Source of the DNA: Veillonella sp. VA137
GTDB lineage: Bacteria > Bacillota > Negativicutes > Veillonellales > Veillonellaceae
Length of the DNA: 40,000 nucleotides
Direction of reading: 5' to 3'
NCBI RefSeq assembly: GCF_003992015.1
Contig: NZ_RQVK01000005.1
Location: 24,093 to 64,092, forward strand
Positions within the stretch are counted from its first letter, which is position 1; each line of letters opens with the position of its first letter. Positions 2,150 to 39,405 of this stretch are shown one piece after another. The position numbers and the translations under genes were made by a program. The notes under the pieces were generated by a model. The model made no database searches. It saw only the letters and a list, made by a program, of their open reading frames with translations, and was not told where the DNA came from.

Positions 2150-3250
2150 TTATGCATTTTCTAGGCGGTTGCTCAACCGTTGCTCAACCTTTTGGAGACT
2201 ATCACCAAACGGAAGTTTATTCACGGCATCGATATACTGATCAATTGTTTTATGAGTATAAACTCCCTGAGTGATATTATTCTGTGTAGAATGCCCTACG
2301 ATGTTTTTGATGATAATTTCGGGGATACTGTAATCGCTGCATAACGTTATAAACGTATGGCGAGTGTCATGTGGCTTGCGCCTATCCATCCCCAATCGTT
2401 CACATATTTCGGTCAATTTTCTTCTATATCCATCTTGCCCAATAATGCCATCCATTAAGCATATTGAGCGTTTAAATTTAGCTGTGGCGTATAACTCCTG
2501 GATGAATGGAGCGATGCATTCAGCAATAGGGATGATGCGGTCACGCCCTGCATCGGTCTTTGAACCGCCTACCATGTACCGTTCCTTCAAGTGAATGTCA
2601 TCCACCTTCATATGTAAGAGTTCGTTTAATCGAACTCCAGTGTAAATATAGATAAGAATGATACGGACAATTTGCTCATCCTGGTGTAACCATAATTGGT
2701 GAATATCTTCCTCACGAAATGGAGTTGCCTTCTTAATAGATGTAGCATTCTTGCTGATAATAATATCTTTCATATAATTTTTAACGAGCACTTCATTTTT
2801 AATGGCTATATTGCAAGTTTTAATCAATGTCGATTTTATAACCTCTTGATATGATTTACTATATATAAAATTATCAAAATATGGTTGTACATGAGCTGTT
2901 CTTAGCGCCGTGATATCCATTGGTAGAATGGGTTTCATCATCTTTTTAACAGCATTAATTACCTCTATCCGACCTACTGAAAGCCCCATGCGCTCGGCTT
3001 CTTCAAAATACCATTGAAAGCACTGCTCAACGGTAATCACTTGTTTTTTCTCTAGTGCACTAGGGTCATTGGAGAATAGAGCCAATGCCTCGTAGGCTTC
3101 CTTTTGGCTGGCATATGTGCCTAGAGTTTTACGAATTGGCTTACCTTCATCCGTCCATCCAGTCGTGATGACGGCACGGAATGGCTTGCGTAATTTCTTA
3201 TGTTTCATCTTGTAAACGGATCCCGATCCGTTAGAGCGTTTCAACGCCAT
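2150..3250 (-). CDS. int: phage integrase, tyrosine recombinase family
   Basis: C-terminal motifs TGVRLNEL, HDTRHTF, VGHS, GVYTH (R..HxxR..H..Y). The N-terminal arm-type domain reads GSGSVYK..FRAVIT..GTYASQKEAYEAL. The likely start is ATG 3250 with SD aaggtgg 8 nt upstream. The ORF track start at 3262 is a GTG inside that SD. Confidence 0.9.
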   Translation of the reverse strand: MALKRSNGSGSVYKMKHKKLRKPFRAVITTGWTDEGKPIRKTLGTYASQKEAYEALALFSNDPSALEKKQVITVEQCFQWYFEEAERMGLSVGRIEVINAVKKMMKPILPMDITALRTAHVQPYFDNFIYSKSYQEVIKSTLIKTCNIAIKNEVLVKNYMKDIIISKNATSIKKATPFREEDIHQLWLHQDEQIVRIILIYIYTGVRLNELLHMKVDDIHLKERYMVGGSKTDAGRDRIIPIAECIAPFIQELYATAKFKRSICLMDGIIGQDGYRRKLTEICERLGMDRRKPHDTRHTFITLCSDYSIPEIIIKNIVGHSTQNNITQGVYTHKTIDQYIDAVNKLPFGDSLQKVEQRLSNRLENA

Positions 3251-3352
3251 AAAAATAACCACCTTTTATGTGTAGCAAATACACCTAAAAAGTGGTACAA
3301 TATATGTATTGAATATATGTGGATGTACCACCCTTTAGGTATGTTCAGAATT

Positions 3353-3387
3353 TACCTCTCCAGTTGGCGCTGGGGAGGTATTTTTTT
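3353..3387 (+). terminator. plus-strand hairpin plus T7 run between int and immA-like gene
   Basis: tacctctccag (3353-3363) pairs with ctggggaggta (3370-3380) with one mismatch, followed by ttttttt (3381-3387). There is no plus-strand gene upstream. Confidence 0.45.
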
Positions 3388-3429
3388 ATGCAATTTTAAA
3401 ACTTGAGCTATTTCCATCTTGGAAAGAAA

Positions 3430-3705
3430 TCAATCGATGAATTGATAGTAAAAGTTCACTTCTTCATGGTTGAAGTCAGCTTCATTTCCATGCAATAGGG
3501 ATTCTATTAGCCCTGCATGCATGTCTTGCGTAAAATGTCCTTCCATGATGTGGCACACCTCGTGGGCGATGCTCTCTCTTAATACATCAATAGGCTTGTT
3601 CTTATTAACTAATATGGTGTAACAATCTGTATCCTCGCTCGTACATAGTGTAGCGGATATCTTCCTTGGTAATTTCGTATACAGTATAGTGATATTAATC
3701 TCTAT
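3430..3705 (-). pseudogene. ImmA/IrrE-like HExxH metallopeptidase, open frame without canonical start codon
   Basis: The minus-strand frame reads IEINITILYTKLPRKISATLCTSEDTDCYTILVNKNKPIDVLRESIAHEVCHIMEGHF..YYQFID*. It carries an HEVCH zinc motif and lies directly downstream of the XRE repressor, as in ImmR-ImmA pairs. There is no ATG, GTG or TTG before the internal Met of HIMEGH. The frame opens right after a TAA that overlaps the repressor stop. Confidence 0.55.
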
Positions 3706-4049
3706 TTACCCCCTCGTAAACGATTTACTAAATCTATCACATAATCCAAATCTTCATCGCTTAAATCCTTCGCAGCATCTAACAGAATACCCTCTTGTGT
3801 TCTAGCATATTCTGCTTTGGCATTGACTGCTGGGTCGATGTAATAAGCATTACTTGGCGCTCCATATAATCTATTCATATCAACATTGAAAAAATCTGCT
3901 ATAGCCTCTAACATTTCATAGCTAGGTTTTCTTTGATTGGATTCATACATACTAATCATGCTTTTAGATATATTTAAATAGTCTGAAAGTTCTTGTTGTG
4001 TAACCTTACGTTCGGTACGCAATTCTTTTAATATTTTACCGAATGACAT
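3702..4049 (-). CDS. XRE-family repressor (cI/ImmR-like)
   Basis: HTH sequence KILKELRTERKVTQQELSDYLNISKSMISMYESNQRKPS. Divergent from the cro-like gene. The likely start is ATG 4049 (MSFGK) with AGGAG 8 nt upstream. The ORF extends to 4094. Confidence 0.85.
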   Translation of the reverse strand: MSFGKILKELRTERKVTQQELSDYLNISKSMISMYESNQRKPSYEMLEAIADFFNVDMNRLYGAPSNAYYIDPAVNAKAEYARTQEGILLDAAKDLSDEDLDYVIDLVNRLRGGK

Positions 4050-4086
4050 ATTCATCACTCCTTTCATAAATAATATATCACATTTT

Positions 4087-4163
4087 GTGAACAAAGTTCA
4101 AGAAAAAAGTTCACAAAAAGTGATTGACAAAGAATTGTTTTGGGTGTAAACTTTAAGTGAACT
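4087..4163. promoter_or_regulatory. immunity switch region: operator-like GTGAAC/GTTCAC half-sites and a sigma70-type promoter towards cro
   Basis: Palindromes tgaacaaagttca (4088-4100) and tcacaaaaagtga (4111-4123). agttcac (4108-4114) is the reverse complement of gtgaact (4157-4163). TTGACA (4124-4129), a 17-nt spacer, then TAAACT (4147-4152). Confidence 0.6.
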
Positions 4164-9334: not shown

Positions 9335-10267
9335 ATGTACAAAAAAATCTTTAACGGCAAGAATGCCACTCATGATGAGTGGTTAGAGGCTCGTAAACAA
9401 GGCATTGGCGGTAGCGATATGGCAGCAATCCTAGGATTTAATAAATACCGTGATGCGGTGAGTGTATGGCTCGATAAGCGAGGAGAGTTGACACCAGTCG
9501 AGGAAAACGAGCCCATGTATTGGGGGAATGTACTGGAGGAAGTAGTCGCCCAGGAGTTCGCCAAACGTACAGGGTGGAAAGTTAGAAACAATAACTATAC
9601 ATTACAGTCAATCGAGCATCCATACTTATTGGCCAACATTGATCGTGAGATCGTAGGCGTGGATGCGGGATTAGAATGTAAGACCGCCAATGCATTCAAG
9701 CGAGATGAATGGGAGGGGGATGAAGTCCCTACATCCTATTACATCCAGTGCCAACATTACATGGCAGTCACTGGTAAATCATCTTGGTGGATTGCTTGCT
9801 TATTAGGTGGTAATACCTTCATTTATAAGGAAATACCAAGAAATGAAGACGTAATAGAGGCTATCATCCGAGAGGGCAAAGTTTTTTGGGATATGGTGCA
9901 AAATGGAACAGTGCCAGCTGTAACTGGTAGTGAATCGAGTTCCGAAGCACTCAAGATGATGTATAACAAGTCAAATGAACAGACAATAGAACTTGATGAT
10001 GTTGCGGTTAATTACATTAACCAATATAACAATGCCAAGGCAAAGATTAAAGAAGCCACAGACGCTAAGGATGAAGCTGAAAATATCCTGAAATCCTTGC
10101 TTGGAGAAAATGAGGTAGGAACTGTTGGCGGGTTCAAGGTTACTTGGAAAATGCGAAAAGGTGCAAGCCGTTTCAATACAAAACAATTCCAAGCGGATCA
10201 TCCAGAATTACATAAGCAATACATGGTAAAAGGCGAAGATACTCGTTCAACATTTAGCATTAAATAA
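9335..10267 (+). CDS. YqaJ-like viral recombinase exonuclease
   Basis: The N-terminal motif HDEWLEARKQGIGGSDMAAILG is typical of YqaJ/lambda-Exo-like domains. Paired with RecT downstream. Confidence 0.85.
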   Translation: MYKKIFNGKNATHDEWLEARKQGIGGSDMAAILGFNKYRDAVSVWLDKRGELTPVEENEPMYWGNVLEEVVAQEFAKRTGWKVRNNNYTLQSIEHPYLLANIDREIVGVDAGLECKTANAFKRDEWEGDEVPTSYYIQCQHYMAVTGKSSWWIACLLGGNTFIYKEIPRNEDVIEAIIREGKVFWDMVQNGTVPAVTGSESSSEALKMMYNKSNEQTIELDDVAVNYINQYNNAKAKIKEATDAKDEAENILKSLLGENEVGTVGGFKVTWKMRKGASRFNTKQFQADHPELHKQYMVKGEDTRSTFSIK

Positions 10268-16108: not shown

Positions 16109-16300
16109 GTGACGGAAATAAAATGCATCAAACGGAAGTGCTTGCATAATGAGCAAGGCATTTGCACGGCTAAGACAATCGAATATGACGGGTTATGCCA
16201 AACCTATGCGACACCAGACTTTATGATGCGGACTAAAACGGCTCATGTATCAAAGCGCCATGGACGATATAAGCAACAAAAGGGGGAGGTATTGCGATGA
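16109..16300 (+). CDS. small Cys-rich protein (DUF1540-like)
   Basis: GTG start with SD aaaggcgg. Sequence CIKRKCLHNEQGICTAKTIEYDGLC. Confidence 0.55.
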   Translation: MTEIKCIKRKCLHNEQGICTAKTIEYDGLCQTYATPDFMMRTKTAHVSKRHGRYKQQKGEVLR

Positions 16301-17322
16301 ATATTGTGCAATTACCAATAGAAGAGTTAACACCATACGAGAATAATCCGAGGAACAACAAAAAGGCGATTAAATACGTTGCCAACAGTATTCATGACTT
16401 TGGATTCAAATCTCCAATTATCTTGGATGCCAATAAAGTCATCATATGTGGTCACACCAGGTATGAGGCGGCAAAAGTACTGGGTTACACTTATGTACCA
16501 TGTATTATTGCTAGTGACCTAACAGAATCACAGGTAAAAGCCTATAGGCTAGCAGATAACAAGGTGGCTGAAATGGCGAAGTGGGATTATGATTTGCTTT
16601 CATTCGAAATACAAGACCTATCATTTGATATGGAGGACTTTGGGTTCGATGTGGAGCGGTTGCTAACTCCAGCAGAAGAAAAAGAAAATGAACGTGAAAG
16701 AACGATGGATGCTTACAACTTACACGACTATGATAGCGGTAATGTTGAGGGATTCTATCAGATGCCAATCATCACTAGGACGTATGCTAAGCCTAGCGAG
16801 TTGATTGGCTTTAATTATGTCAAAACAAACAAAAAGAAAGAAGGGCAAGGCGTGCACTTCTTCATTGATGATTACCAATTTGAACGGATTTGGAATGATC
16901 CTGATAAATACGTGGATATGCTAATTCCTTATGAGTGCGTGCTTACACCTGACTTTAGTTTATATACTGAAATGCCAATGGCAATGAAAATATGGAATGT
17001 GTATCGCTCCAGGTTGATTGGTCAAATTCTCCAACAGAATGGGGCAAACGTGGTACCTACCCTTTCATGGTGCGAGCGTGATACGTTCGCATTCTGTTTT
17101 GATGGCATTGAACCAGGTGGCACAGTGGCAGTATCAACAATAGGGGTCAAACGAGCAGATGGTGCCTATCATATGTGGTCAGAGGGAATGGATGAAGCAA
17201 TACGTAAGTTAAAACCAGATCACATTATCGTATATGGTGGTGATATTGGCTACCAGTTTCCTTGCGAGGTTACATACATCAATAATGCGGTAACGGAAAG
17301 GATGAAGAACAATGGGAGGTAG
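16297..17322 (+). CDS. ParB-like nuclease N-terminal domain fused to DUF4417-like domain
   Basis: N-terminus IEELTPYENNPRNN..FGFKSPIILD..ICGHTRYEAAK. C-terminus GVHFFIDDYQFERIWNDPDKY..LTPDFSLY. Confidence 0.75.
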   Translation: MNIVQLPIEELTPYENNPRNNKKAIKYVANSIHDFGFKSPIILDANKVIICGHTRYEAAKVLGYTYVPCIIASDLTESQVKAYRLADNKVAEMAKWDYDLLSFEIQDLSFDMEDFGFDVERLLTPAEEKENERERTMDAYNLHDYDSGNVEGFYQMPIITRTYAKPSELIGFNYVKTNKKKEGQGVHFFIDDYQFERIWNDPDKYVDMLIPYECVLTPDFSLYTEMPMAMKIWNVYRSRLIGQILQQNGANVVPTLSWCERDTFAFCFDGIEPGGTVAVSTIGVKRADGAYHMWSEGMDEAIRKLKPDHIIVYGGDIGYQFPCEVTYINNAVTERMKNNGR

Positions 17323-17704
17323 AGGCGCTAGTGCTGGTATCAGTAAAAAGGGGAAACCATACGGTACAGAGCATTATACGGTATATCAATATGAGAATAT
17401 CAAGTTTATTAAGAATGCAGAAAATAACTCAAAAGTCCCTATGGAGACGATGACCCAAGGGCGTATCTATGCAATCATTAACAAACGCAATGAAGTTCAC
17501 TCTATTAGCTTTTATGATGAAAACAACAAGAGATATAAGCAAATAGATGTAAGAGGCTCAAAACATTCAATTGATGGAAAGAAAACAATACCGCATACAC
17601 ATCATGGATATGAGCACGACGAACGCGGAACGAAAGCGTTGACGAAAATAGAAAAACAAATAGTTGAAGATGTATTAAAAGTGTGGGATAATAGGCACAA
17701 ATAG
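17312..17704 (+). CDS. hypothetical protein starting MGGRGAS, His-rich motif HTHHGYEHDERG
   Basis: Clean ORF overlapping the previous stop. The N-terminal heptapeptide is shared with 17910-18512. Confidence 0.6.
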   Translation: MGGRGASAGISKKGKPYGTEHYTVYQYENIKFIKNAENNSKVPMETMTQGRIYAIINKRNEVHSISFYDENNKRYKQIDVRGSKHSIDGKKTIPHTHHGYEHDERGTKALTKIEKQIVEDVLKVWDNRHK

Positions 17705-17853
17705 ATTGACTAGTAGTTTAATGGCAGCAGAACGCGGGCCTTTACAAGAAAACTGAACTAGAGGGGTTCTCTAGGCTTGTTTAAGTTTCTAGGGCGCTGT
17801 ATAGCAGGTAAAACGTCCGAAGCGTGTGGTTCGACTCCCACCTAGTCAATCTA
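17702..17853 (+). ncRNA. tRNA-like structured RNA with 12-bp closing helix and a roughly 75-nt branched insertion replacing the anticodon loop
   Basis: tagattgactag (17702-17713) is the reverse complement of ctagtcaatcta (17842-17853). U8-A9. D-arm gttt/gaac with loop AATGGCAGCA (A14, GG, A21). Stem cgggc (17735-17739) pairs with gtccg (17815-17819). T-arm gtg(t)gg TTCGACT cccac (17824-17841). Followed by a terminator. No canonical 7-nt anticodon loop. Confidence 0.6.
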
Positions 17854-17860
17854 TTTTTTT

Positions 17861-17909: not shown

Positions 17910-18512
17910 TTGGGCGGACGTGGTGCTAGTTATGGGGCGAAAAGTAGTGTTTTTTACAAAAAGAAAAACGGAAGAATTCTTGAACTTGCAGATGCTAATG
18001 AATCAAATTTTAAAAAGTTTGGGGTAAATGCTAAAGAGTTTCAAGGACTAAAAACGATGGTTAGAGATTTGGGAGGAGCATGGAGAGGCGATAATAACGA
18101 TAAAAGTGTGTTCATGTTTGGCGGTAATTCAATAAGCCGGTCAACAGCTAATCGTATTTTAAAATCTGGTAAATATGTAAATGAAGAACAACGCAGAAAA
18201 AATAACGAATTAAAGTTTAGACTTCAAGAAAAATTAAGCGGCAGAAGTTCCTCATATATCACTGCAAAAGATACTTCTACGGCTGGTAAAGCTGGCAGAA
18301 GTAAAATTTCTAAAGCTAAACGAGAATTTAGTTTATCTACTGCACATGGTGTGGCGGTATCAGATATAAAGCGAGTTAAAAGTGATATTGCATTTAATAA
18401 GAGGTTTATAGGTAAAGGAGCTACAAAAGAACAGTTAAAAGAAGTTTCTAAACTTGAAAGAAAAATTAAAAGTATAGAACGTGAAGCGAAAAAGTATAGC
18501 ATTAGCTTATAA
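17910..18512 (+). CDS. hypothetical basic protein starting (M)GGRGAS, TTG start
   Basis: TTG start with SD gaggtga upstream. 200 aa, Lys/Arg/Ser-rich. Shares its N-terminal motif with 17312-17704. Confidence 0.55.
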   Translation: MGGRGASYGAKSSVFYKKKNGRILELADANESNFKKFGVNAKEFQGLKTMVRDLGGAWRGDNNDKSVFMFGGNSISRSTANRILKSGKYVNEEQRRKNNELKFRLQEKLSGRSSSYITAKDTSTAGKAGRSKISKAKREFSLSTAHGVAVSDIKRVKSDIAFNKRFIGKGATKEQLKEVSKLERKIKSIEREAKKYSISL

Positions 18513-28827: not shown

Positions 28828-30839
28828 TGGCAACGATTACAAACTATATAAACTTATCAACGAATATTCCAGCGGTTGCTCAAAGTGCAGCAAATGGGAT
28901 GATAAACCTTGCCAACGGCGCTAATAATGCGACTGGCAAAATGCAACAATTTATTAATGTCACAAACTCAGCTAAAAGCGGTTGGGGAGGATTCCTTGCA
29001 TCGTTTACAGGCAATTTCTTTGCAGACTTGGCAATGCGAGGTATTAGCATGGTCACTGGCGCAATTAGCAGCCTTAATCAAACAGCCAACGAGTTTAATT
29101 CGATTCAAGCAAGGCTTAACTTGGTCACAGGCGATCAAGCAAATGCAGTAGCATTGAATAAACAAATTTATGATTCAGCAATACGAGCCCGTGGGGGTTA
29201 CATGGAAATGGCAGAATCTGTAACGCAATTATCGATGTCAGCACACGATGCATTCCCTGACCCACGTGAGGCGGTTGGATTCATGGAGGGCATTCAAAAA
29301 TTATTCGTTATTGGCGGTGCAAGCAAGGCTAGCCAAAAGAATGCTATGCTCCAATTAACCCAAGGTATGGCAAGCGGTCAATTACAAGGTGATGAGTTCC
29401 GTTCCATTGCAGAGAATGCACCAATCATTGAAAATATGATTGCCAAAACGATGGGTGTAAGCCGTGGCGAACTCAAGCAGTTAGCAGCGGATGGTAAAGT
29501 TACATCCGAGGTAATTAAGAAGTCGATTATGGACAATATGCCAGAAATTGAAGCACAATTTGCTAAAATGCCTAAGACATTTGATGACCATATGACGGAG
29601 TTAAAAAACCGGGCTATCAACGCATTTACACCAGTATTTGAGAGATTAAAAGATTTTGGTAACAGTGAAGTCATGGGTAGGATGTTTGACGGCATAGCCA
29701 ATGCCATAGAATATGTAGCGCCGTTCTTCTATTGGCTCGTAGGAGTTGCAGAATGGGCAATGTCAGGAATTACCACGGCATTCGGAGCGGTCAGCGATTT
29801 CCTCAGTGAAAACTTTGGAATCGTTGAGGTGGCATTAGGTATATTAGCAGGCGTGATAGCTTATTATGCTACGATGTCCTTAATTTCCGCAGCTAATACG
29901 GCGATTGCAATGGGAGCTGTTGCTGCTAAAACGGTGGTCGATTGGGCAGAAACCGCAGCTATTATTGCCATGGAAGCGGCACAATATGGATTGAATGCAG
30001 CAATTGCTTTATGCCCAATTACGTGGATTGTTGGTGGGATTATTCTTCTTATAGGATTATTCTACTTAGCCGTTGCTGGAATCAATTACTTCGCAGGTAC
30101 TTCAATTAGTGCCACAGGTATTATATTTGGGGCTTTTGCATGGTTGTGGGCAGGCATTAGGAATACATTTACATTTGTATGGAATTTAGTTGCAAGTGTA
30201 GCCAACTTCTTGGCGAATGTATTCCAAGACCCATTGGCGGCAATTTATAATCTATTCTCCGACATTTGGAGCAACGTGGTTGATTTGATTGCGACGGCTG
30301 TAAACTCATCAATAGATTTGATTAAGAAGATACCAGGAATGTCGCTTCTAATCGGTAATGCTCACGTAACAGCGGATGATTTTAAATTTAGCCATGCGCC
30401 AGTAGCGGGCGGAGAAAAAACGATTATGCCTAAAATGGAGATGGTTAACGCAGCAGATTATGCGAGCGCAGGATATGCTATGGGTGAGAATCTATTCAAT
30501 TTTGAAATGCCAACTCCTACGATTCCTGAGTATAAAGCCAAAGAAATGGAAGGTACTAAGAAAGATGGCACTCCAAAAGATTCAAAGGCGGGTAAAGAAA
30601 CCGCCAATAATACGAAACGAATGGCGGATGCGGTTGAGATGACGGCGGATGAAATTAAAGAATTACGTGAAAGTGCGGTTCAATCGGCGCTTAACCAATT
30701 CAACCAATCTCACGTCATCGTGAATGTGGACATGGATAACAACATCTCCAATGAAATGGAATTAGACGGAGTAACATCCAAGTTGCTTGATGGCATTCGT
30801 AATGCAGTTGGAATGAAACGGGAAGGGGTGGCAATGTAA
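28827..30839 (+). CDS. tail tape measure protein
   Basis: 670 aa. TMP core ..NAMLQLTQGMASGQLQGDEFRSIAENAP.. and a central hydrophobic region. GTG start. Confidence 0.9.
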   Translation: MATITNYINLSTNIPAVAQSAANGMINLANGANNATGKMQQFINVTNSAKSGWGGFLASFTGNFFADLAMRGISMVTGAISSLNQTANEFNSIQARLNLVTGDQANAVALNKQIYDSAIRARGGYMEMAESVTQLSMSAHDAFPDPREAVGFMEGIQKLFVIGGASKASQKNAMLQLTQGMASGQLQGDEFRSIAENAPIIENMIAKTMGVSRGELKQLAADGKVTSEVIKKSIMDNMPEIEAQFAKMPKTFDDHMTELKNRAINAFTPVFERLKDFGNSEVMGRMFDGIANAIEYVAPFFYWLVGVAEWAMSGITTAFGAVSDFLSENFGIVEVALGILAGVIAYYATMSLISAANTAIAMGAVAAKTVVDWAETAAIIAMEAAQYGLNAAIALCPITWIVGGIILLIGLFYLAVAGINYFAGTSISATGIIFGAFAWLWAGIRNTFTFVWNLVASVANFLANVFQDPLAAIYNLFSDIWSNVVDLIATAVNSSIDLIKKIPGMSLLIGNAHVTADDFKFSHAPVAGGEKTIMPKMEMVNAADYASAGYAMGENLFNFEMPTPTIPEYKAKEMEGTKKDGTPKDSKAGKETANNTKRMADAVEMTADEIKELRESAVQSALNQFNQSHVIVNVDMDNNISNEMELDGVTSKLLDGIRNAVGMKREGVAM

Positions 30840-33834: not shown

Positions 33835-34897
33835 GCATATGACGGCTGACAAAATTGAACAGCGCATGCTTGGTAGGGTCAATCATGCATTCGATAGGCG
33901 TGAGGGGTCAATCATTTATGATGCAACAGCTCCCGCATCTATCGAATTATCTGAACTCTATATTATGGCCGATGTGATTTTAAAAGAAACATTCGCCAAA
34001 ACGGCGAGCCGTGAGTTCTTGAAATTACGAGCCTCGGAGTTCAATATATACCCAGAAGAAGCGACTTTCGCAGAGGTAGAGGGTAAATTCAATGCCCCAG
34101 TCCCTTTAGGAAGTCGTTTTAATTTTGAAGAATACAATTTTATCGTTGATGAAGTGATTGATGATGCCAACCATAGGTATAAAATGCGCTGTGAGACACG
34201 TGGACGTGGGGCCAATGGATGCATTGGATATATCACACCTGTAGTTCCTGTAAACGGCCTTACAAGCGCTGAAATCGTAAAAATCATAACTCCAGGTGAA
34301 GATGAAGAAGACACAGAAGTGTTCCGCAAGAGATACTTTGAGATGTTGAAATCTAAAGCCTATGGCGGTAATGGTGCTGATTACAAGGAAAAGGTGCTTG
34401 CCATTCCAGGTGTTGGCGGTGTGAAAGTGTATCGTTGTTGGAATGGCGGTGGTACCGTCAAACTTGTCGTTACCAACAGCGAGCACGGTGTAGCAGATTC
34501 TGAACTTATTAAAATGGTTCAAAATAAAATCGACCCAGTGCCACAAGGTAAGGGTTACGGGATTGCTCCAATTGGTCATACTGTAACCGTAGTCAGTGCA
34601 GAGCCATCACCGCTTACAATTACAGCAAGAGTGACGTTGAGCGGTGGAAGAACACCCCAAGACTTACAACCAATCGCAACCAAGGCGATAGAATCCTATT
34701 TACTAGGTATTCGCAAAGGATGGGGAGAGAATGACGATAGAGGTCGTGACACTGTAAGGACCGCTTACATTGTTGCTGAAATCTTAAAACTTCCGAATGT
34801 TATTGATGTTGATTCCGTCACAATCAACGGTAGAAGTGATAAGGTGCTACTTGAGGCACATCAAATTCCTACCGTTGGTCGATTAACATTAACATAG
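33827..34897 (+). CDS. baseplate J-like protein (XkdT-like)
   Basis: 356 aa. Order and size fit. ..REGSIIYDATAPASIEL.. at the N-terminus. Confidence 0.75.
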   Translation: MYEHMTADKIEQRMLGRVNHAFDRREGSIIYDATAPASIELSELYIMADVILKETFAKTASREFLKLRASEFNIYPEEATFAEVEGKFNAPVPLGSRFNFEEYNFIVDEVIDDANHRYKMRCETRGRGANGCIGYITPVVPVNGLTSAEIVKIITPGEDEEDTEVFRKRYFEMLKSKAYGGNGADYKEKVLAIPGVGGVKVYRCWNGGGTVKLVVTNSEHGVADSELIKMVQNKIDPVPQGKGYGIAPIGHTVTVVSAEPSPLTITARVTLSGGRTPQDLQPIATKAIESYLLGIRKGWGENDDRGRDTVRTAYIVAEILKLPNVIDVDSVTINGRSDKVLLEAHQIPTVGRLTLT

Positions 34898-35527
34898 GTG
34901 GTAAATATGGAATATAGACGTAACGACATTGATATATCACAATTCCTACCACCTGTTAGCCGTGATAGTCGGGATATCCAAGAAATCATGCGTGTAGAGA
35001 ATCCCGAGTTCATACTTTTATGGGGAATTATGGCTGATTTACTTGATAATCAGTTCATTCCTACCATGGGTGAACTTGGATTGTCACATTGGGAATGGAT
35101 ATTTGACGTATTACCCCAAGACACTGACACCATTGAAGATAGACGTAATCGGATATTACGACTATTAGCTGGTACTAGACCTTACACCGTGGAGAAACTT
35201 CAAGAAATGCTTGATGCCACGTTTGGTCGTGGTGCTGTTGGTGTGGATTTGAACGAAAATCTATATGAAATTTGGTTTGTTTTGAGTAAAGAAATGCGTG
35301 AACGATCAAGTGAAGTTATTAACTACGCTGAGCCAATTGTTCCTAAGAACTTACTGCTCAAAACCCTTGTTGAAGAGAAGGTTCAAACAAAATCTAACTT
35401 TGGTGGGGGGTTATTCTTAGTTGATAAGGAGATCACGATTCTTAAACCTAGAAATTATGATATTTCAACTACCATTTATAACGGTGGAGCCCTTGCAAGC
35501 ACCACTATTGAAATTACAAGGAGGTAA
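34898..35527 (+). CDS. XkdU/YmfQ-like (DUF2313) tail protein
   Basis: ..LDNQFIPTMGELGLSHWEWIFDV..RRNRILRLLAG... Start is GTG 34898 or ATG 34907. Confidence 0.65.
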   Translation: MVNMEYRRNDIDISQFLPPVSRDSRDIQEIMRVENPEFILLWGIMADLLDNQFIPTMGELGLSHWEWIFDVLPQDTDTIEDRRNRILRLLAGTRPYTVEKLQEMLDATFGRGAVGVDLNENLYEIWFVLSKEMRERSSEVINYAEPIVPKNLLLKTLVEEKVQTKSNFGGGLFLVDKEITILKPRNYDISTTIYNGGALASTTIEITRR

Positions 35528-35530
35528 CAG

Positions 35531-36802
35531 ATGGCGTGGAGTCAAGCCTATCTAACAGATGTTGGCAAGCAATTACAAGCATCCGTTATGGCGAACGAAT
35601 TAAAATTACATATTGAAGAAATTTGGCTAGGGGATGGCAATGTAACTAACGTGGAAACAGCCAACAACCTAGGCTCAAAGAAATTGAAATTACAGATTGC
35701 TGGAATCACGCAAGATAATACCGAATGCTTAGTTCGGTTCAGAATCTCAAACGAATCTATTCAAACGCCTATTGTCATGCGTGAGATTGGCTTTTACGCT
35801 AGAGATAAACGAGGTCAATTAATACTTTACTCAATAATGAAAGATGAAGACCCATCCACATTGCCAGTGATGAATGGTCAGGCTATTTATCGCCAAAATA
35901 TGAATGTGGCGTTTGGGTTCAGCAATGCTCAACAAGTGACATGTAATGTGACGTTACATGAAGGTTTGAACGAGCAACAAGTAGATGCGAAGATTACAGC
36001 TCACAATGCAAATGACACTGCCCACAATTTAGATAGATATGCTGGTGGTTCCACCATTCCAAGTAATATCCGTAACTGGAATGATTTAACGAAACCAGGA
36101 ATCTATGAATGCAACGCAGGAGTGCTAGGATGGGCGAATGCCCCAAGCTCCAGTAAAATCTATCCATACGGGCAAATTCATGTGACTAAAACCGATGGAA
36201 ACGTCATCACGCAAACGTTTTATTCTCACGGACAAGGAAAAGCAATAAAACAAGCCAGCCGTACGTTCTATGTTGCTTGGGGTGCATGGCAATACTTTGG
36301 AGATTGGGACAATACGATTACAGGTATTGCCAAACATAACGAGGGCATTAATGTGACTAAAGGCGATGCAACGGAACTTGTTAAGTTAATCACTAACAAC
36401 AAGTCCGACTCTAACACCTTGTTAGCGCCTACATTGGCTGTAGTTAAGGCGCTTATTGGTGATGTGAATATTGATGTAACGAGTATCTTAAAATCCCAAG
36501 GAGTTCGTTACGATTTTAGTAACGAAAATGCTTGGTACATATGCTTAGGGTCCTCGTTCGGCGGCCTAATTATCCAAGGGGGAAAATTCATTCCTGAAAC
36601 TGCAAATATTACGTATTCCATTAGATTCACTAAAGTATTGGCAGTACTCCCCATGATGTTAGATGAGCCAACGGCATGGCACGAAATGATGGTGCGGCCA
36701 AAGTCTATCACAACAAGCAATTTTAAGATCGTAAGCGGAAGCAACAACACTAATTACCCTAAATCTCGCAATAATGGTTGCTGGATTGCGATAGGAATTT
36801 AA
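35531..36802 (+). CDS. tail fibre protein (DUF3751-type N-terminal collar domain), currently expressed C-terminal variant
   Basis: The N-terminus resembles P2 gpH/Mu S-type collar domains (..IEEIWLGDGN.., ..MREIGFYA..G.LILYS.., ..VDAKITAHNANDTAHN). It is the last gene of the baseplate cluster. Confidence 0.8.
   Translation: MAWSQAYLTDVGKQLQASVMANELKLHIEEIWLGDGNVTNVETANNLGSKKLKLQIAGITQDNTECLVRFRISNESIQTPIVMREIGFYARDKRGQLILYSIMKDEDPSTLPVMNGQAIYRQNMNVAFGFSNAQQVTCNVTLHEGLNEQQVDAKITAHNANDTAHNLDRYAGGSTIPSNIRNWNDLTKPGIYECNAGVLGWANAPSSSKIYPYGQIHVTKTDGNVITQTFYSHGQGKAIKQASRTFYVAWGAWQYFGDWDNTITGIAKHNEGINVTKGDATELVKLITNNKSDSNTLLAPTLAVVKALIGDVNIDVTSILKSQGVRYDFSNENAWYICLGSSFGGLIIQGGKFIPETANITYSIRFTKVLAVLPMMLDEPTAWHEMMVRPKSITTSNFKIVSGSNNTNYPKSRNNGCWIAIGI
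36574..36586 (+). repeat. left inverted repeat CCAAGGGGGAAAA (candidate recombination core) inside the tail-fibre gene
   Basis: Exact 13-mer. Read as at(C) CAA GGG GGA AAA, giving I-Q-G-G-K. Confidence 0.9.
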
Positions 36803-36987
36803 CTTCCGTAAGCTAGCCATGTAGTTAGATAATTTCTATTGTCGTGGGAATAAAGTTTAAAATTACGCAATGTTACATCTTTGTAACTTGGAGCATTTAC
36901 ACCCCAACCTTTAGTTGCTTGGATACCTAAAACTTTCCGCTGGAATGCAATAGGGAAAGCTACTAAGTCGTCATTTGTTTCAGTTCG
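36587..36987. other. candidate invertible DNA segment (401 bp)
   Basis: Bounded by the two 13-bp inverted repeats. Contains the expressed 3' end (36587-36802) and the silent cassette (36799-36987), tail to tail. Confidence 0.65.
36799..36987 (-). other. silent, start-less alternative tail-fibre C-terminal cassette (62 codons)
   Basis: The minus-strand frame reads RTETNDDLVAFPIAFQRKVLGIQATKGWGVNAPSYKDVTLRNFKLYSHDNRNYLTTWLAYGS*. No start codon lies between the upstream TAG and the cassette. It shares ET, I.F..KVL, NFK(I/L) and W(I/L)A.G with the expressed C-terminus. Confidence 0.7.
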
Positions 36988-37000
36988 TTTTCCCCCTTGG
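36988..37000 (-). repeat. right inverted repeat (reverse complement of CCAAGGGGGAAAA)
   Basis: ttttcccccttgg on the plus strand. On the minus strand it is read ga(C) CAA GGG GGA AAA, giving D-Q-G-G-K. It abuts the recombinase stop codon (37001-37003). Confidence 0.9.
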
Positions 37001-37927
37001 TCATTTAAGCAATTTGATTGCCTTACGCAATTGACCTAATGATTTATGGGTGTACACTCCATCGGTAACATTGCCACTAGCATGCCCAAGCAGTAATCGC
37101 TTCGCATTGTAATTAGCGCCCTCGTTATCAAGGCGTGTAGCGAAGGTGTGGCGACAGTCATGGGTGGTGTGTTTGGAATTAATGGCACGCATTACCTTAT
37201 TAAACTCACGGCTAAGTGATGAATAGGTGCGACATTCCTGAATGATGTATACCGCATCAAGCCGTCTTTCAATAATGGGCCATATGCGATCATGAATAGG
37301 AATTGTTCGGATTCCTGATTTAGTTTTGGCCGATGTGATCCTAATCGTGCGCTGTTTACGGTTAACATCACGAGATTTGAGGTTGATTAATTCCGAGGCC
37401 CTCATTCCCGTGTAAAGCAGAATCAGGGGAATATCATGCAATGGGGATTCTAACCGCCATAATCGGTTGATGGATTGGGTGGTGAATGGTTTGTGTGGTC
37501 GCACTGGCTTATTGTGGCCAAGGTTTAGGAATTTGGCATAATTAGTGGAGCACCAACCGTTAATTATGGAGTAGTCAAAAATCTGACTAATGAGTGTGCG
37601 GACCTTCTTGCAAGAACTGTAAGATAGCCCAACACTTAGCATGTAATCAATTATGGCTTGCAGTTGTAAGTATGTGATGTCGCTCATTGCTACATTGTGA
37701 ATGCTAACAAGGTGTGAGAATGCTGAACCGTAGTTATTTAGAGTGTTAACGCTAACACTCTTAGAATGCGACGGTAGCCACATTTCGTAGACTTGCTGGA
37801 GTGTTAAGGATGTACGAGATTGGTTAAGTGCATTAACCGCTTCATCGTAGGTTGCGAAATAGCCAACCACAGAATAAACAACATAAGGGCGCTTGGTTGC
37901 GCCCTTTATCTTTTGAATTAATTTCAT
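37001..37927 (-). CDS. tyrosine recombinase (phage-integrase family), candidate tail-fibre invertase
   Basis: TGMRASEL (Arg), HDCRHTFAT (HxxR), LLGHAS, GVYTHKS (Tyr). Lies immediately adjacent to the inverted-repeat-bounded segment. Confidence 0.85.
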   Translation of the reverse strand: MKLIQKIKGATKRPYVVYSVVGYFATYDEAVNALNQSRTSLTLQQVYEMWLPSHSKSVSVNTLNNYGSAFSHLVSIHNVAMSDITYLQLQAIIDYMLSVGLSYSSCKKVRTLISQIFDYSIINGWCSTNYAKFLNLGHNKPVRPHKPFTTQSINRLWRLESPLHDIPLILLYTGMRASELINLKSRDVNRKQRTIRITSAKTKSGIRTIPIHDRIWPIIERRLDAVYIIQECRTYSSLSREFNKVMRAINSKHTTHDCRHTFATRLDNEGANYNAKRLLLGHASGNVTDGVYTHKSLGQLRKAIKLLK

Positions 37928-37959
37928 TTTGATTACCTCGCTGAAAGGAGAATAAAGAA

Positions 37960-38358
37960 ATGGAAAATAAGTACGTATTTATTTTAAATGAAAAGGGAGC
38001 TCGTGTAACATCCCTGTTAGTAGGCGTGCATGCTGAATCAGAAGAGTCATGCCTTGAACTTGCCAAGAAAGAGTACCCTGATCATAAGTATGTGGCAGGT
38101 GGAGATGAAATGCAAGCGCAATTCATTGCTTACAAATGCTACGTCAATGGGGAGTTCATTGACTACGTTCCTGAGGTTGTCGAGCCATCTAAAAAGGACA
38201 AAATTGAAGCCTTGAAGAAAGAGGCGGAGACAGAGCGCGATAAGTTAAAAGAAGTCTTCTTGACTAAACAAATGAAAGGCTTGCCTACTGACGATATTAA
38301 GGCACAGTTTAAACAAATTGATGTTGACCTTATTAAGAAGATTCGTGAGTTGAAATAG
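37960..38358 (+). CDS. hypothetical protein (weak resemblance to tail-fibre assembly chaperones)
   Basis: SD aaaggag upstream. The C-terminal charged helical region reads ..KQMKGLPTDDIKAQFKQIDVDLIKKI... The functional call is weak. Confidence 0.55.
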   Translation: MENKYVFILNEKGARVTSLLVGVHAESEESCLELAKKEYPDHKYVAGGDEMQAQFIAYKCYVNGEFIDYVPEVVEPSKKDKIEALKKEAETERDKLKEVFLTKQMKGLPTDDIKAQFKQIDVDLIKKIRELK

Positions 38359-38370
38359 GAGGGATTTCCG

Positions 38371-38535
38371 ATGAAAGAACAATATTGCGAATGGTGCGGT
38401 TCGGTGCTGTTAGAGAACGGTCGTTGCCCGATTGAAGATTGTGTACAAAATGTCTTGATCGATGAACTAGCAAAGGCTGAACAAGAGGCAACGGATAAAA
38501 CAGAGGAAAAGAAAGATGAAAATCCAACAGCATGA
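38371..38535 (+). CDS. small zinc-ribbon-like protein (54 aa)
   Basis: MKEQYCEWCGSVLLENGRCPIEDC.. (CxxC..CxxxxC). SD taggaggg upstream. Below the ORF-track cutoff. Confidence 0.5.
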   Translation: MKEQYCEWCGSVLLENGRCPIEDCVQNVLIDELAKAEQEATDKTEEKKDENPTA

Positions 38536-38881: not shown

Positions 38882-39023
38882 AGATGATGAAGGCATTGTA
38901 GACGTTGTAAAAGTAAAAGAATTAACCATGTGTGCGCATGAGGATCAAAACCAATCGACAACAAAAGCCATTATCGAGGATAGAGATTTCTTAGCATTAT
39001 ATATTTTAGAACGAGGTAATTAA
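38850..39023 (+). CDS. small hypothetical protein (57 aa)
   Basis: MGETVVIRTYEDDEGIVDVVKV.. with SD ataggggg upstream. Ends 1 nt before the next ATG. Confidence 0.4.
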   Translation: MGETVVIRTYEDDEGIVDVVKVKELTMCAHEDQNQSTTKAIIEDRDFLALYILERGN

Positions 39024-39024
39024 G

Positions 39025-39405
39025 ATGAAATTAGTTGAAAGAATCACCTTAGTGGTGAAAGAAATTGGGAAAGACATTAAGGCGTTGAAAAGCCGTGTAT
39101 TGACGTTGGAGAGCAATGCAGGAAATGGTGCAGTTGATGAATCCGTGATTACAAATAAGGTGAGTGAAGAAATCGCCAAAGTAGTGGGTGGTGCTCCTGA
39201 GACGTTCAATACTCTAAAAGAGATTGCTGACTATATAGAGCAGGATAAAACAGGTGCGTCTGCAATGGCAGAAAGTATTAACAAGCGATTGCGAGTTGAT
39301 GAACAGCAAACATTATCTGAGCAAGAGCAAGCAAACGTATTAGGAGCATTAGGGTTTACTGATACGGATTTTGTAACAGCATACAACACAGCGGTGAATG
39401 GCTAG
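39025..39405 (+). CDS. tail-fibre-like protein (GAPETxxTLKEIAD motif)
   Basis: ..VVGGAPETFNTLKEIADYIEQDK.. is a motif common in phage fibre proteins. The coiled N-terminus IGKDIKALKSRV is shared with the next ORF. Confidence 0.6.
   Translation: MKLVERITLVVKEIGKDIKALKSRVLTLESNAGNGAVDESVITNKVSEEIAKVVGGAPETFNTLKEIADYIEQDKTGASAMAESINKRLRVDEQQTLSEQEQANVLGALGFTDTDFVTAYNTAVNG

Follow-up and report, generated by a model that had tools for sequence, protein, structure and literature searches.

The stretch analysed here, referred to below as the window, comprises 40,000 nucleotides (nt) of contig NZ_RQVK01000005.1 from Veillonella sp. VA137, and its subject is a tail-fibre gene with a putative tip shufflon, that is, a set of C-terminal cassettes exchanged by site-specific inversion. 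To judge from its genes, the window is a temperate prophage with a contractile tail. The locus consists of the fibre gene, two tip cassettes that lie tail to tail with overlapping stop codons, two inverted copies of a short repeat, and a gene for a tyrosine recombinase (Table 1). The repeat, CCAAGGGGGAAAA, is exact in both copies and is prolonged imperfectly to 23 nt (83%; 36564-36586 / 36988-37010). Both copies are translated as C-CAA-GGG-GGA-AAA, or QGGK. The fibre open reading frame (ORF; 35531-36802, plus strand), of 423 amino acids (aa), reads ..GGLIIQGGK/FIPETANITY..WIAIGI-stop, and a frame on the minus strand (36799-37041) reads ..H-stop-VNCVRQSNCLNDQGGK/RTETNDDLVAFPIAF..WLAYGS-stop. 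The codons of this second frame between its upstream TAG and QGGK are GTC AAT TGC GTA AGG CAA TCA AAT TGC TTA AAT GAC; ATG, GTG and TTG are absent among them, and no ORF was called for the frame in the ORF listing of the window. The invertible segment contains the two tips only, and the TGA stop of the recombinase ORF (37001-37003) lies 1 nt past the right repeat. A preliminary description of this DNA had proposed exact 13-bp inverted repeats in the same codon phase on each strand, a silent cassette without a start codon and an adjacent 308-aa tyrosine recombinase, and all of these are borne out, the last by a PF00589 match and a full catalytic set.

The same description had predicted that inversion at the repeats would yield a seamless in-frame fibre of 352+62 aa, and this protein exists verbatim. 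We simulated the inversion of 36587-36987 and used the resulting 414-aa fibre as a query against a protein collection; the top match, P0001, is 100% identical across all 414 aa. The contig that encodes it (L001, Logan SRR14346561_2536) is 100% identical to window positions ~34200-36586, a flank of 2.4 kb, and goes on with window positions 37000 to 36579 reversed, again at 100% identity, before it ends inside the far repeat. Because L001 matches both the flank and the reversed segment, the predicted alternative state is a naturally occurring one, and its breakpoints fall inside the 13-mer. The roles of the two tips are likewise exchanged elsewhere. Cassette 2, silent in the window, is expressed as the tip in P0001/L001, with close variants in P0002-P0004, L007 and L054, and the tip type of cassette 1 is silent in L005, L007, L046, L051, L054, L056 and L080. 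A megablast search with window positions 35000-38400 against 50,697 deposited phage genomes gave no match.

Table 1. Features of the fibre-tip locus, followed by other prophage genes mentioned in the text (window positions).
Feature	Position	Strand	Remarks
Constant part of tail-fibre gene	35531..36573	+	codons 1-348, ending ..FGGLII; PF12571 at residues 6-140
Left crossover site, inside fibre gene	36574..36586	+	core CCAAGGGGGAA = 36574-36584, read QGG(K)
Cassette 1, expressed tip	36587..36802	+	FIPETANITY...WIAIGI, 71 aa + stop; completes PF21882
Cassette 2, silent start-less tip	36799..36987	-	RTETNDDLVAFPIAF...WLAYGS, 62 aa + stop; completes PF21882
Invertible segment, 401 bp, both cassettes	36587..36987	.	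present in the opposite orientation, 100% identical, in Logan contig SRR14346561_2536
Right crossover site, inverted core copy	36988..37000	-	outer arm TTAAATGA overlaps last codons and stop of recombinase gene
Tyrosine recombinase, presumed shufflon invertase, 308 aa	37001..37927	-	PF00589 and SAM-like core-binding domains
Prophage integrase	2150-3262		one prophage end
Helix-turn-helix (HTH) repressor	3702-4094		same prophage end as integrase
YqaJ-like recombination exonuclease	9335-10267		prophage gene

The layout of the window recurs in a family of related prophage loci. Scanning with the recombinase identified nine Veillonella loci in genomes and 38 more contigs in IMG/VR (L044-L081), whose recombinases fall into two clades (87-92% and ~61% identity). 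Related proteins and loci come from Veillonella, and about 45 prophage loci share the layout, including those of the isolates Veillonella sp. VA142, VA139 and 3891. Wherever the DNA is present, the Veillonella genomes L003-L008 included, the constant part of the fibre is followed by two to six cassettes on either strand and then by the recombinase, whose gene lies next to the array in every related Veillonella or IMG/VR locus. Cassettes in these loci start with CCAAGGGGGA, in the QGG frame. The consensus of 28 bona fide sites (29 were listed, one of them a false positive in the constant region of L004) is roughly tTAAwTrw-CCAAGGGGGAA, with a nearly invariant core, a weakly conserved A/T-rich outer arm and a variable flank on the cassette side. 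The recombinase-proximal site is ..CTTAAATGACCAAGGGGGAA or a near variant in all loci, and the outer arm of this last site overlaps the final recombinase codons and the stop. Conservation of the 13-mer in related prophages, in the QGGK phase and next to a tyrosine recombinase, had been suggested as a check in the preliminary description, and the core is found there in the QGG frame.

Comparisons within this family revealed that near-identical locus pairs differ solely by inversion or permutation at the sites. Between L054 and L055, a 437-bp middle part is inverted, with flanks of 1703 and 2397 bp that are 100% identical. The loci L057 and L058, both from IMG dataset 3300045988, are related by two nested inversions of a three-cassette array, and multiple permutations separate L056 from L080 and L044 from L045. 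Similarly, L003 (Veillonella sp. VA142) and L007 (sp. 3891) contain the same three cassettes with their states swapped. These permuted loci support the core of the original proposal, namely that the fibre tip is invertible, that a homologous cassette is kept silent, and that a tyrosine recombinase is dedicated to the exchange. One part of it has to be revised: the inversion stands, but the locus is not a stand-alone two-state switch, being a reduced member of a multi-cassette shufflon. Further copies of the 13-mer, proposed as a sign of such an array, are lacking in the window, where CCAAGGGGGAAAA occurs only twice even with up to two mismatches allowed, and the arrays are found in the relatives. 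Many contigs (L002, L041, L042, L065, L067, L069, L071 and L077) end within the recombinase-proximal site or 2-76 nt beyond it, as would be expected if the reads contained mixed orientations.

A further observation concerns site variation in L005. Here, the fibre-gene site and the recombinase-proximal site have a variant core, CCAAAGGGG (read QRG), and the three internal sites have CCAAGGGGG. The variant is thus common to the two outermost, mutually inverted sites, which might be the mark of a past exchange and a clue to the crossover point.

The exchanged part of the fibre corresponds to most of one domain. The fibre matches the N-terminal tail-collar domain PF12571 (E=6e-6) and has a C-terminal Gp53-like_C domain (PF21882), whose knob receives its first strands from the constant part. 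Joined to this constant strand, the tips match PF21882 over profile positions 4-83. Tested as C-terminal fragments, both score above the gathering score of 24.9, the silent tip with 34.8 bits (E=2.5e-8) and the expressed tip with 26.7 bits (E=8.4e-6). We conclude, in agreement with the preliminary description, that the two tips are divergent forms of a single domain. Of 202 unique tips, 197 fall into one BLASTP single-linkage cluster at E<=1e-3, in which the links between the two tip types of the window are weak, and 21 families are resolved at E<=1e-10. Column conservation in 50 homologues is about 0.9 up to G351 and then falls to 0.3-0.4. Likewise, 117 of the 120 fibre homologues listed have ..(I/L)(I/L)QGG and a full-length tip, with abrupt divergence beyond the motif.

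Structure prediction places this boundary within the fold. The AlphaFold2 model of the full-length fibre has low confidence (pLDDT 64.6, pTM 0.31), and its use is limited to the better C-terminal ~100 residues and to fold-level matches; in it, QGG is predicted to lie in a beta-strand (347-353) of the C-terminal domain. Foldseek matched the model to R2/R1 pyocin fibres (the R2 fibre 6cl6, 1.7e-8, and 6cl5), gp53 of the Acinetobacter phage AP22 (4mtm, TMt 0.60) and an H-type lectin. NCBIfam contains no specific family for the fibre, and its relatives are named "pyocin knob domain-containing protein" at NCBI. Taken together, the exchangeable tip of ~60-100 aa forms most of a gp53/pyocin-knob-like C-terminal domain and is probably the receptor binder.

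We consider it highly probable that the locus acts as a shufflon of the tail fibre in a temperate Veillonella prophage with a contractile tail. In such a system, the QGG codons would form the core, CCAAGGGGGAA, of a short asymmetric recombination site, one copy of which precedes each tip cassette. Most likely, the adjacent tyrosine recombinase would pair the site in the fibre gene with an inverted site, and strand exchange, whose exact positions we infer to lie within the translated core, would flip the DNA in between and so join the constant part, in frame, to a tip that had been silent. The window would thereby toggle between a 423-aa fibre with the FIPET... tip, its present state, and a 414-aa fibre with the RTETN... 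tip, and a lysogen population would release virions with alternative tips, hedging its host range. With its crossover in a beta-strand close to where the knob begins, the exchange would replace almost all of the distal domain and keep the shaft and the baseplate attachment constant.

The window contains an array of two cassettes, and a related contig points to its origin. L043 (SRR14346557) encodes an identical recombinase (100%), followed by four tandem silent cassettes (MQSS.., KADIEI.., TTASIY.. and KRTETN..), and its array was counted as one of five cassettes. In the window, at 36988-37010, one site, with no other cassette in between, links the recombinase-proximal flank to the KRTETN cassette (compared with L043:1300-2100). 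The window is thus probably a minimal two-cassette copy produced by site-specific deletion of three cassettes between direct sites, where the direction of the change would have been deletion and not insertion. Deletion between directly oriented sites is usually thought to be avoided by shufflon recombinases.

Such a history allows another reading, in which the window is a frozen relic: after the loss of three cassettes the copy would no longer switch, and the opposite orientation would be an old, fixed difference between lineages. The resemblance of the window junction to a deletion product of the five-cassette array of L043 fits this reading, as does the result of an exact-protein look-up, in which the 423-aa fibre of the window had no record in the assembly collection. 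However, the flip in L001 must be very recent, because the 2.4-kb flank and the flipped segment are all 100% identical. In addition, the recombinase ORF is intact, as are the two 13-nt sites, and two contigs with an identical recombinase end inside the site, as mixed orientations would give. We therefore regard a frozen relic as unlikely and retain a switching shufflon as the explanation.

The recombinase has the features needed for this role. It matches PF00589 (E=2.8e-20), as well as PF14659 and PF13102, and is related to phrog_1 (E=4.4e-57) and to XerD (1a0p, E=5.5e-13). In addition to a core-binding domain, the 308-aa protein has the R-K-H-R-H/W-Y set of the tyrosine recombinase superfamily, comprising R176, K203, H256, R259, H282 and Y292. 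We considered whether it might be the integrase of the prophage and rejected this, as a separate integrase and an HTH repressor are located at 2150-4094 and no tRNA is found in the window. With that integrase and repressor placed at one end of the prophage, the 308-aa enzyme is a second recombinase, embedded in the tail module. The two recombinases (37001-37927 and 2150-3262) align end to end over 320 aa with 23% identity (E=7e-20) and share an N-terminal motif, G-x-(F/Y)-A-(T/S)-x-x-E-A, which is reminiscent of the integrase arm-binding domain. The invertase is ~60 aa shorter than the integrase, with ~26 of these residues missing at the N-terminus. This comparison suggests that the shufflon recombinase descended from an integrase. 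A homologue of the serine invertases was also sought in the window by tblastn with a Hin sequence as query, and no match better than E=4.5 was obtained.

This kinship with integrases bears on a second alternative, namely that the tips are exchanged by RecA or phage homologous recombination, or by modular exchange between co-infecting phages at a conserved motif, and that the recombinase serves a different purpose, for example the integration or resolution of an element. In favour of it, a YqaJ-like recombination exonuclease is among the gene products of the prophage, and mosaicism of phage fibre genes is well established. Furthermore, the best tblastn matches of the recombinase in deposited phages have at most 32% identity, and its nearest relatives there are ordinary phage integrases at ~30%. 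Three of these matches were inspected as possible fibre shufflons (Fusobacterium phiHugo and FNU4 and Butyrivibrio Arawn) and rejected, all being integrases by lysogeny/lysis modules. What argues against such exchange is that the recombinase accompanies the cassette array in every related locus, that its 3' end is the outer arm of the last site, and that a separate integrase and repressor are present at the prophage end. Modular exchange, moreover, yields neither start-less, inverted, tail-to-tail cassettes nor permuted cassette sets in otherwise identical genomes, and 11-13 nt is far under the length that homologous recombination uses efficiently. This alternative is, in our view, very improbable compared with site-specific inversion by the adjacent enzyme.

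Several points nevertheless weigh against a switching shufflon. Chance alone could account for the 13-nt repeat: for a 40-kb sequence of the composition of the window, the expectation is 0.84 exact inverted repeats of at least 13 nt within 1 kb, 46% of random sequences contain one, and the window itself has three further places of this kind. We therefore rejected any statistical significance of the 13-mer alone, and the significance of the repeat comes only from its position and from its conservation in relatives; the 11-nt core CCAAGGGGGAA has two copies in the window at up to one mismatch, compared with 0.43 expected. The similarity of the two tips to each other is weak, with no alignment between the 71-aa and 62-aa tips in BLASTP and a collinear profile alignment of 56 columns at 27% identity in hhalign (E=0.0035). 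The recombinase belongs to no curated invertase family, all its matches in NCBIfam being far under the cut-offs, and contig breaks at the site could have other causes. In principle, a copy that has lost cassettes could be decaying. Comparisons between assemblies suggest that the window copy still switches, and we infer both that the 308-aa recombinase is the inversion catalyst and that the tips differ in receptor specificity, with an effect on host range. The most sceptical explanation, in which the 13-mer is a coincidence of the frequency just given and the inverted contigs, several of the supporting sequences being metagenome assemblies, are mis-assemblies at the repeat, is scarcely credible: ~45 independent loci, isolate genomes among them, have the core at the beginning of each cassette, the two tips are read in frame and complete one and the same domain, and the assemblers used would probably not be misled by a repeat of 13 nt.

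The surroundings of the shufflon are those of a late tail module. In addition to the genes in Table 1, the prophage contains genes for a terminase, an SPP1-type portal, sheath, tape measure and baseplate J proteins, and a gene for a Mu gp48-like protein lies directly upstream of the fibre gene; the GC content of the window is 39.8%. Beyond the recombinase, at 39025-39405 (plus strand), lies a second tail-fibre-like gene (phrog_4757; fibre N-terminal-like), so that the recombinase sits in the middle of a late fibre operon in the opposite orientation. In L004 and L005, the region past the recombinase encodes long proteins with collagen-like G-X-Y repeats. The ribosome-binding site and first codons of the recombinase gene (GAGGTAATCAAAATGAAATTAATTCAAA) are a near-duplicate of those of the gene at 39025-39405 (GAGGTAATTAAGATGAAATTAGTTGAAA), and a 29-nt inverted repeat of 86% identity is found at 37912-37940 and 39012-39040.

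Promoter and terminator scans around the locus gave nothing better than shuffled sequences. A perfect 8-bp GC-rich hairpin (AAGGGCGC..GCGCCCTT) at 37885-37906, in recombinase codons 8-14, is followed by a T-run on the plus strand; it could stop read-through from the fibre operon or attenuate the recombinase, with terminator-like sites being no more frequent than in shuffles. Two other exact inverted repeats were found, one of 15 nt (17699-17713 / 17842-17856) between ORFs 17312-17704 and 17910-18512, upstream of the terminase gene, and one of 13 nt (1841-1853 / 1897-1909) just outside the integrase end of the prophage. A protein with a ParB N-terminal domain and DUF4417 (E=4e-70), encoded at 16297-17322 in the region of the early/late junction, has no relation to the shufflon.

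The preliminary description regarded the combination of a tyrosine recombinase with a phage fibre-tip switch as possibly undescribed, which does not hold. The Rin shufflon of Bifidobacterium breve and B. longum prophages, published in 2018, consists of the tyrosine invertase gene rin, a constant part (Rc) and variable cassettes (Rv) that encode promoterless C-terminal parts of a receptor-binding protein (RBP), with 11-bp rix crossover sites, TTCCCTAACCC (Mavrich et al, 2018; PMC6109161). Prophages of Eggerthella lenta were afterwards reported to have it as well (PMC8778435). The Veillonella loci resemble it in several respects. Both have a constant N-terminal RBP part and start-less C-terminal cassettes of ~60-100 aa, and in both a short (11-bp) asymmetric site that is rare elsewhere precedes each cassette. 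In both, the tyrosine recombinase abuts the last site on the opposite strand, on the side of the array away from the constant part, a separate prophage integrase is present, and inversions at the sites are seen between genomes. A search of IMG/VR recovered 64 rix-bearing loci (L088-L151), with two copies of TTCCCTAACCC 285-315 nt apart. The one examined in detail, L102 (61% GC), has five rix sites, bounded by a 269-aa ORF on one side and a 291-aa recombinase on the other, a layout like that of the Veillonella locus. It may be, then, that shufflons of the Rin type are common among viral contigs from metagenomes.

The components of the two systems are distinct. The Veillonella recombinase has 20% identity to that of L102 over 166 aa (E=1e-3) and is not an orthologue of Rin; Rin is XerD-like and armless, whereas the Veillonella invertase has an integrase-like N-terminal motif. 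The site of the Veillonella loci is CCAAGGGGGAA and not TTCCCTAACCC, and no rix-like site is present in the region, the single one-mismatch match in the window, at 29253, being within chance. The fibre is of the tail-collar/gp53-pyocin-knob type and belongs to a contractile-tailed phage, whereas the RBP of the Rin phages is TP901-1/1358-like (PMC6109161). Finally, the host is a diderm Negativicute with ~40% GC instead of an actinobacterium. Because enzyme, site, fibre fold, tail type and host phylum all differ, the Veillonella system works like Rin but is not a member of it by descent, and to judge from these sequence comparisons it probably evolved independently.

The principle, a tyrosine-recombinase shufflon of phage RBP tips, is thus already known, and the Veillonella case is a new example of it. 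No description of the Veillonella system was found in the literature, including a survey of programmed inversions (PMC9881135), and no papers on tail fibres or shufflons of these Veillonella prophages were found, although coverage of the literature was incomplete. On balance, we lean towards an undescribed second lineage of fibre shufflons, independent of Rin, which would have recruited a phage-integrase-type recombinase that keeps a remnant of the N-terminal motif. This lineage would be widespread in Veillonella prophages, with up to six cassettes drawn from at least 21 tip families, a core that encodes QGG in a beta-strand of the knob, and direct-site deletion as an additional route to two-state switches. 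Tyrosine-recombinase shufflons of receptor-binding tips would then not be limited to actinobacterial siphophages, but recur in contractile-tailed prophages of a diderm Firmicute, apparently through convergent recruitment of an integrase-like enzyme.

Some consequences are practical. The system is compact, with a recombinase gene of ~0.9 kb and an 11-nt in-frame core, and the related loci in public data provide at least 21 families of exchangeable knob tips, a library for the study or engineering of host range in Veillonella phages. A shufflon is also a systematic breakpoint in short-read assembly, and one phage yields several "different" fibre proteins in catalogues, a concern for the clustering of viromes and for the prediction of hosts. 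The deletion that seems to have occurred between direct sites is relevant to a question raised for Rin, namely how armless or nearly armless tyrosine invertases avoid or permit excision.

Other systems that vary a distal tip share parts of this architecture. Diversity-generating retroelements, which are common in phages of the human microbiome, also diversify the receptor-binding tip of the fibre; they act by mutagenic retrohoming with a reverse transcriptase, whereas the Veillonella locus has no reverse transcriptase and would use cassette inversion. Inversion also underlies the switches of Mu (Gin/G), P1 (Cin/C), e14 (Pin) and p15B (Min), in which alternative C-terminal fibre parts are fused to a constant N-terminus in a phage or prophage and host range is changed in this way. 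Gin, Cin, Pin and Min are serine invertases dependent on an enhancer and on Fis, and what they exchange is the C-terminal fibre part along with a chaperone gene (Sv-U / Sv'-U'). In contrast, the Veillonella enzyme is a tyrosine recombinase, and the knob-domain tip alone is swapped, with no chaperone gene in the segment. The R64/IncI shufflon (cited in PMC9881135) has the tyrosine recombinase Rci at the end of the array, and multiple inversions swap the C-terminal tip of the pilV adhesin. The Veillonella loci share with it short, asymmetric, in-frame sites at the junction of constant and variable parts and the exchange of the C-terminal tip only, and differ from it in their target, which in R64 is the tip adhesin of a plasmid conjugative pilus and in Veillonella the fibre of a phage. 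Among the phage switches themselves, Min of p15B is, like the arrays in the relatives of the window, a multi-cassette fibre switch (PMC6109161).

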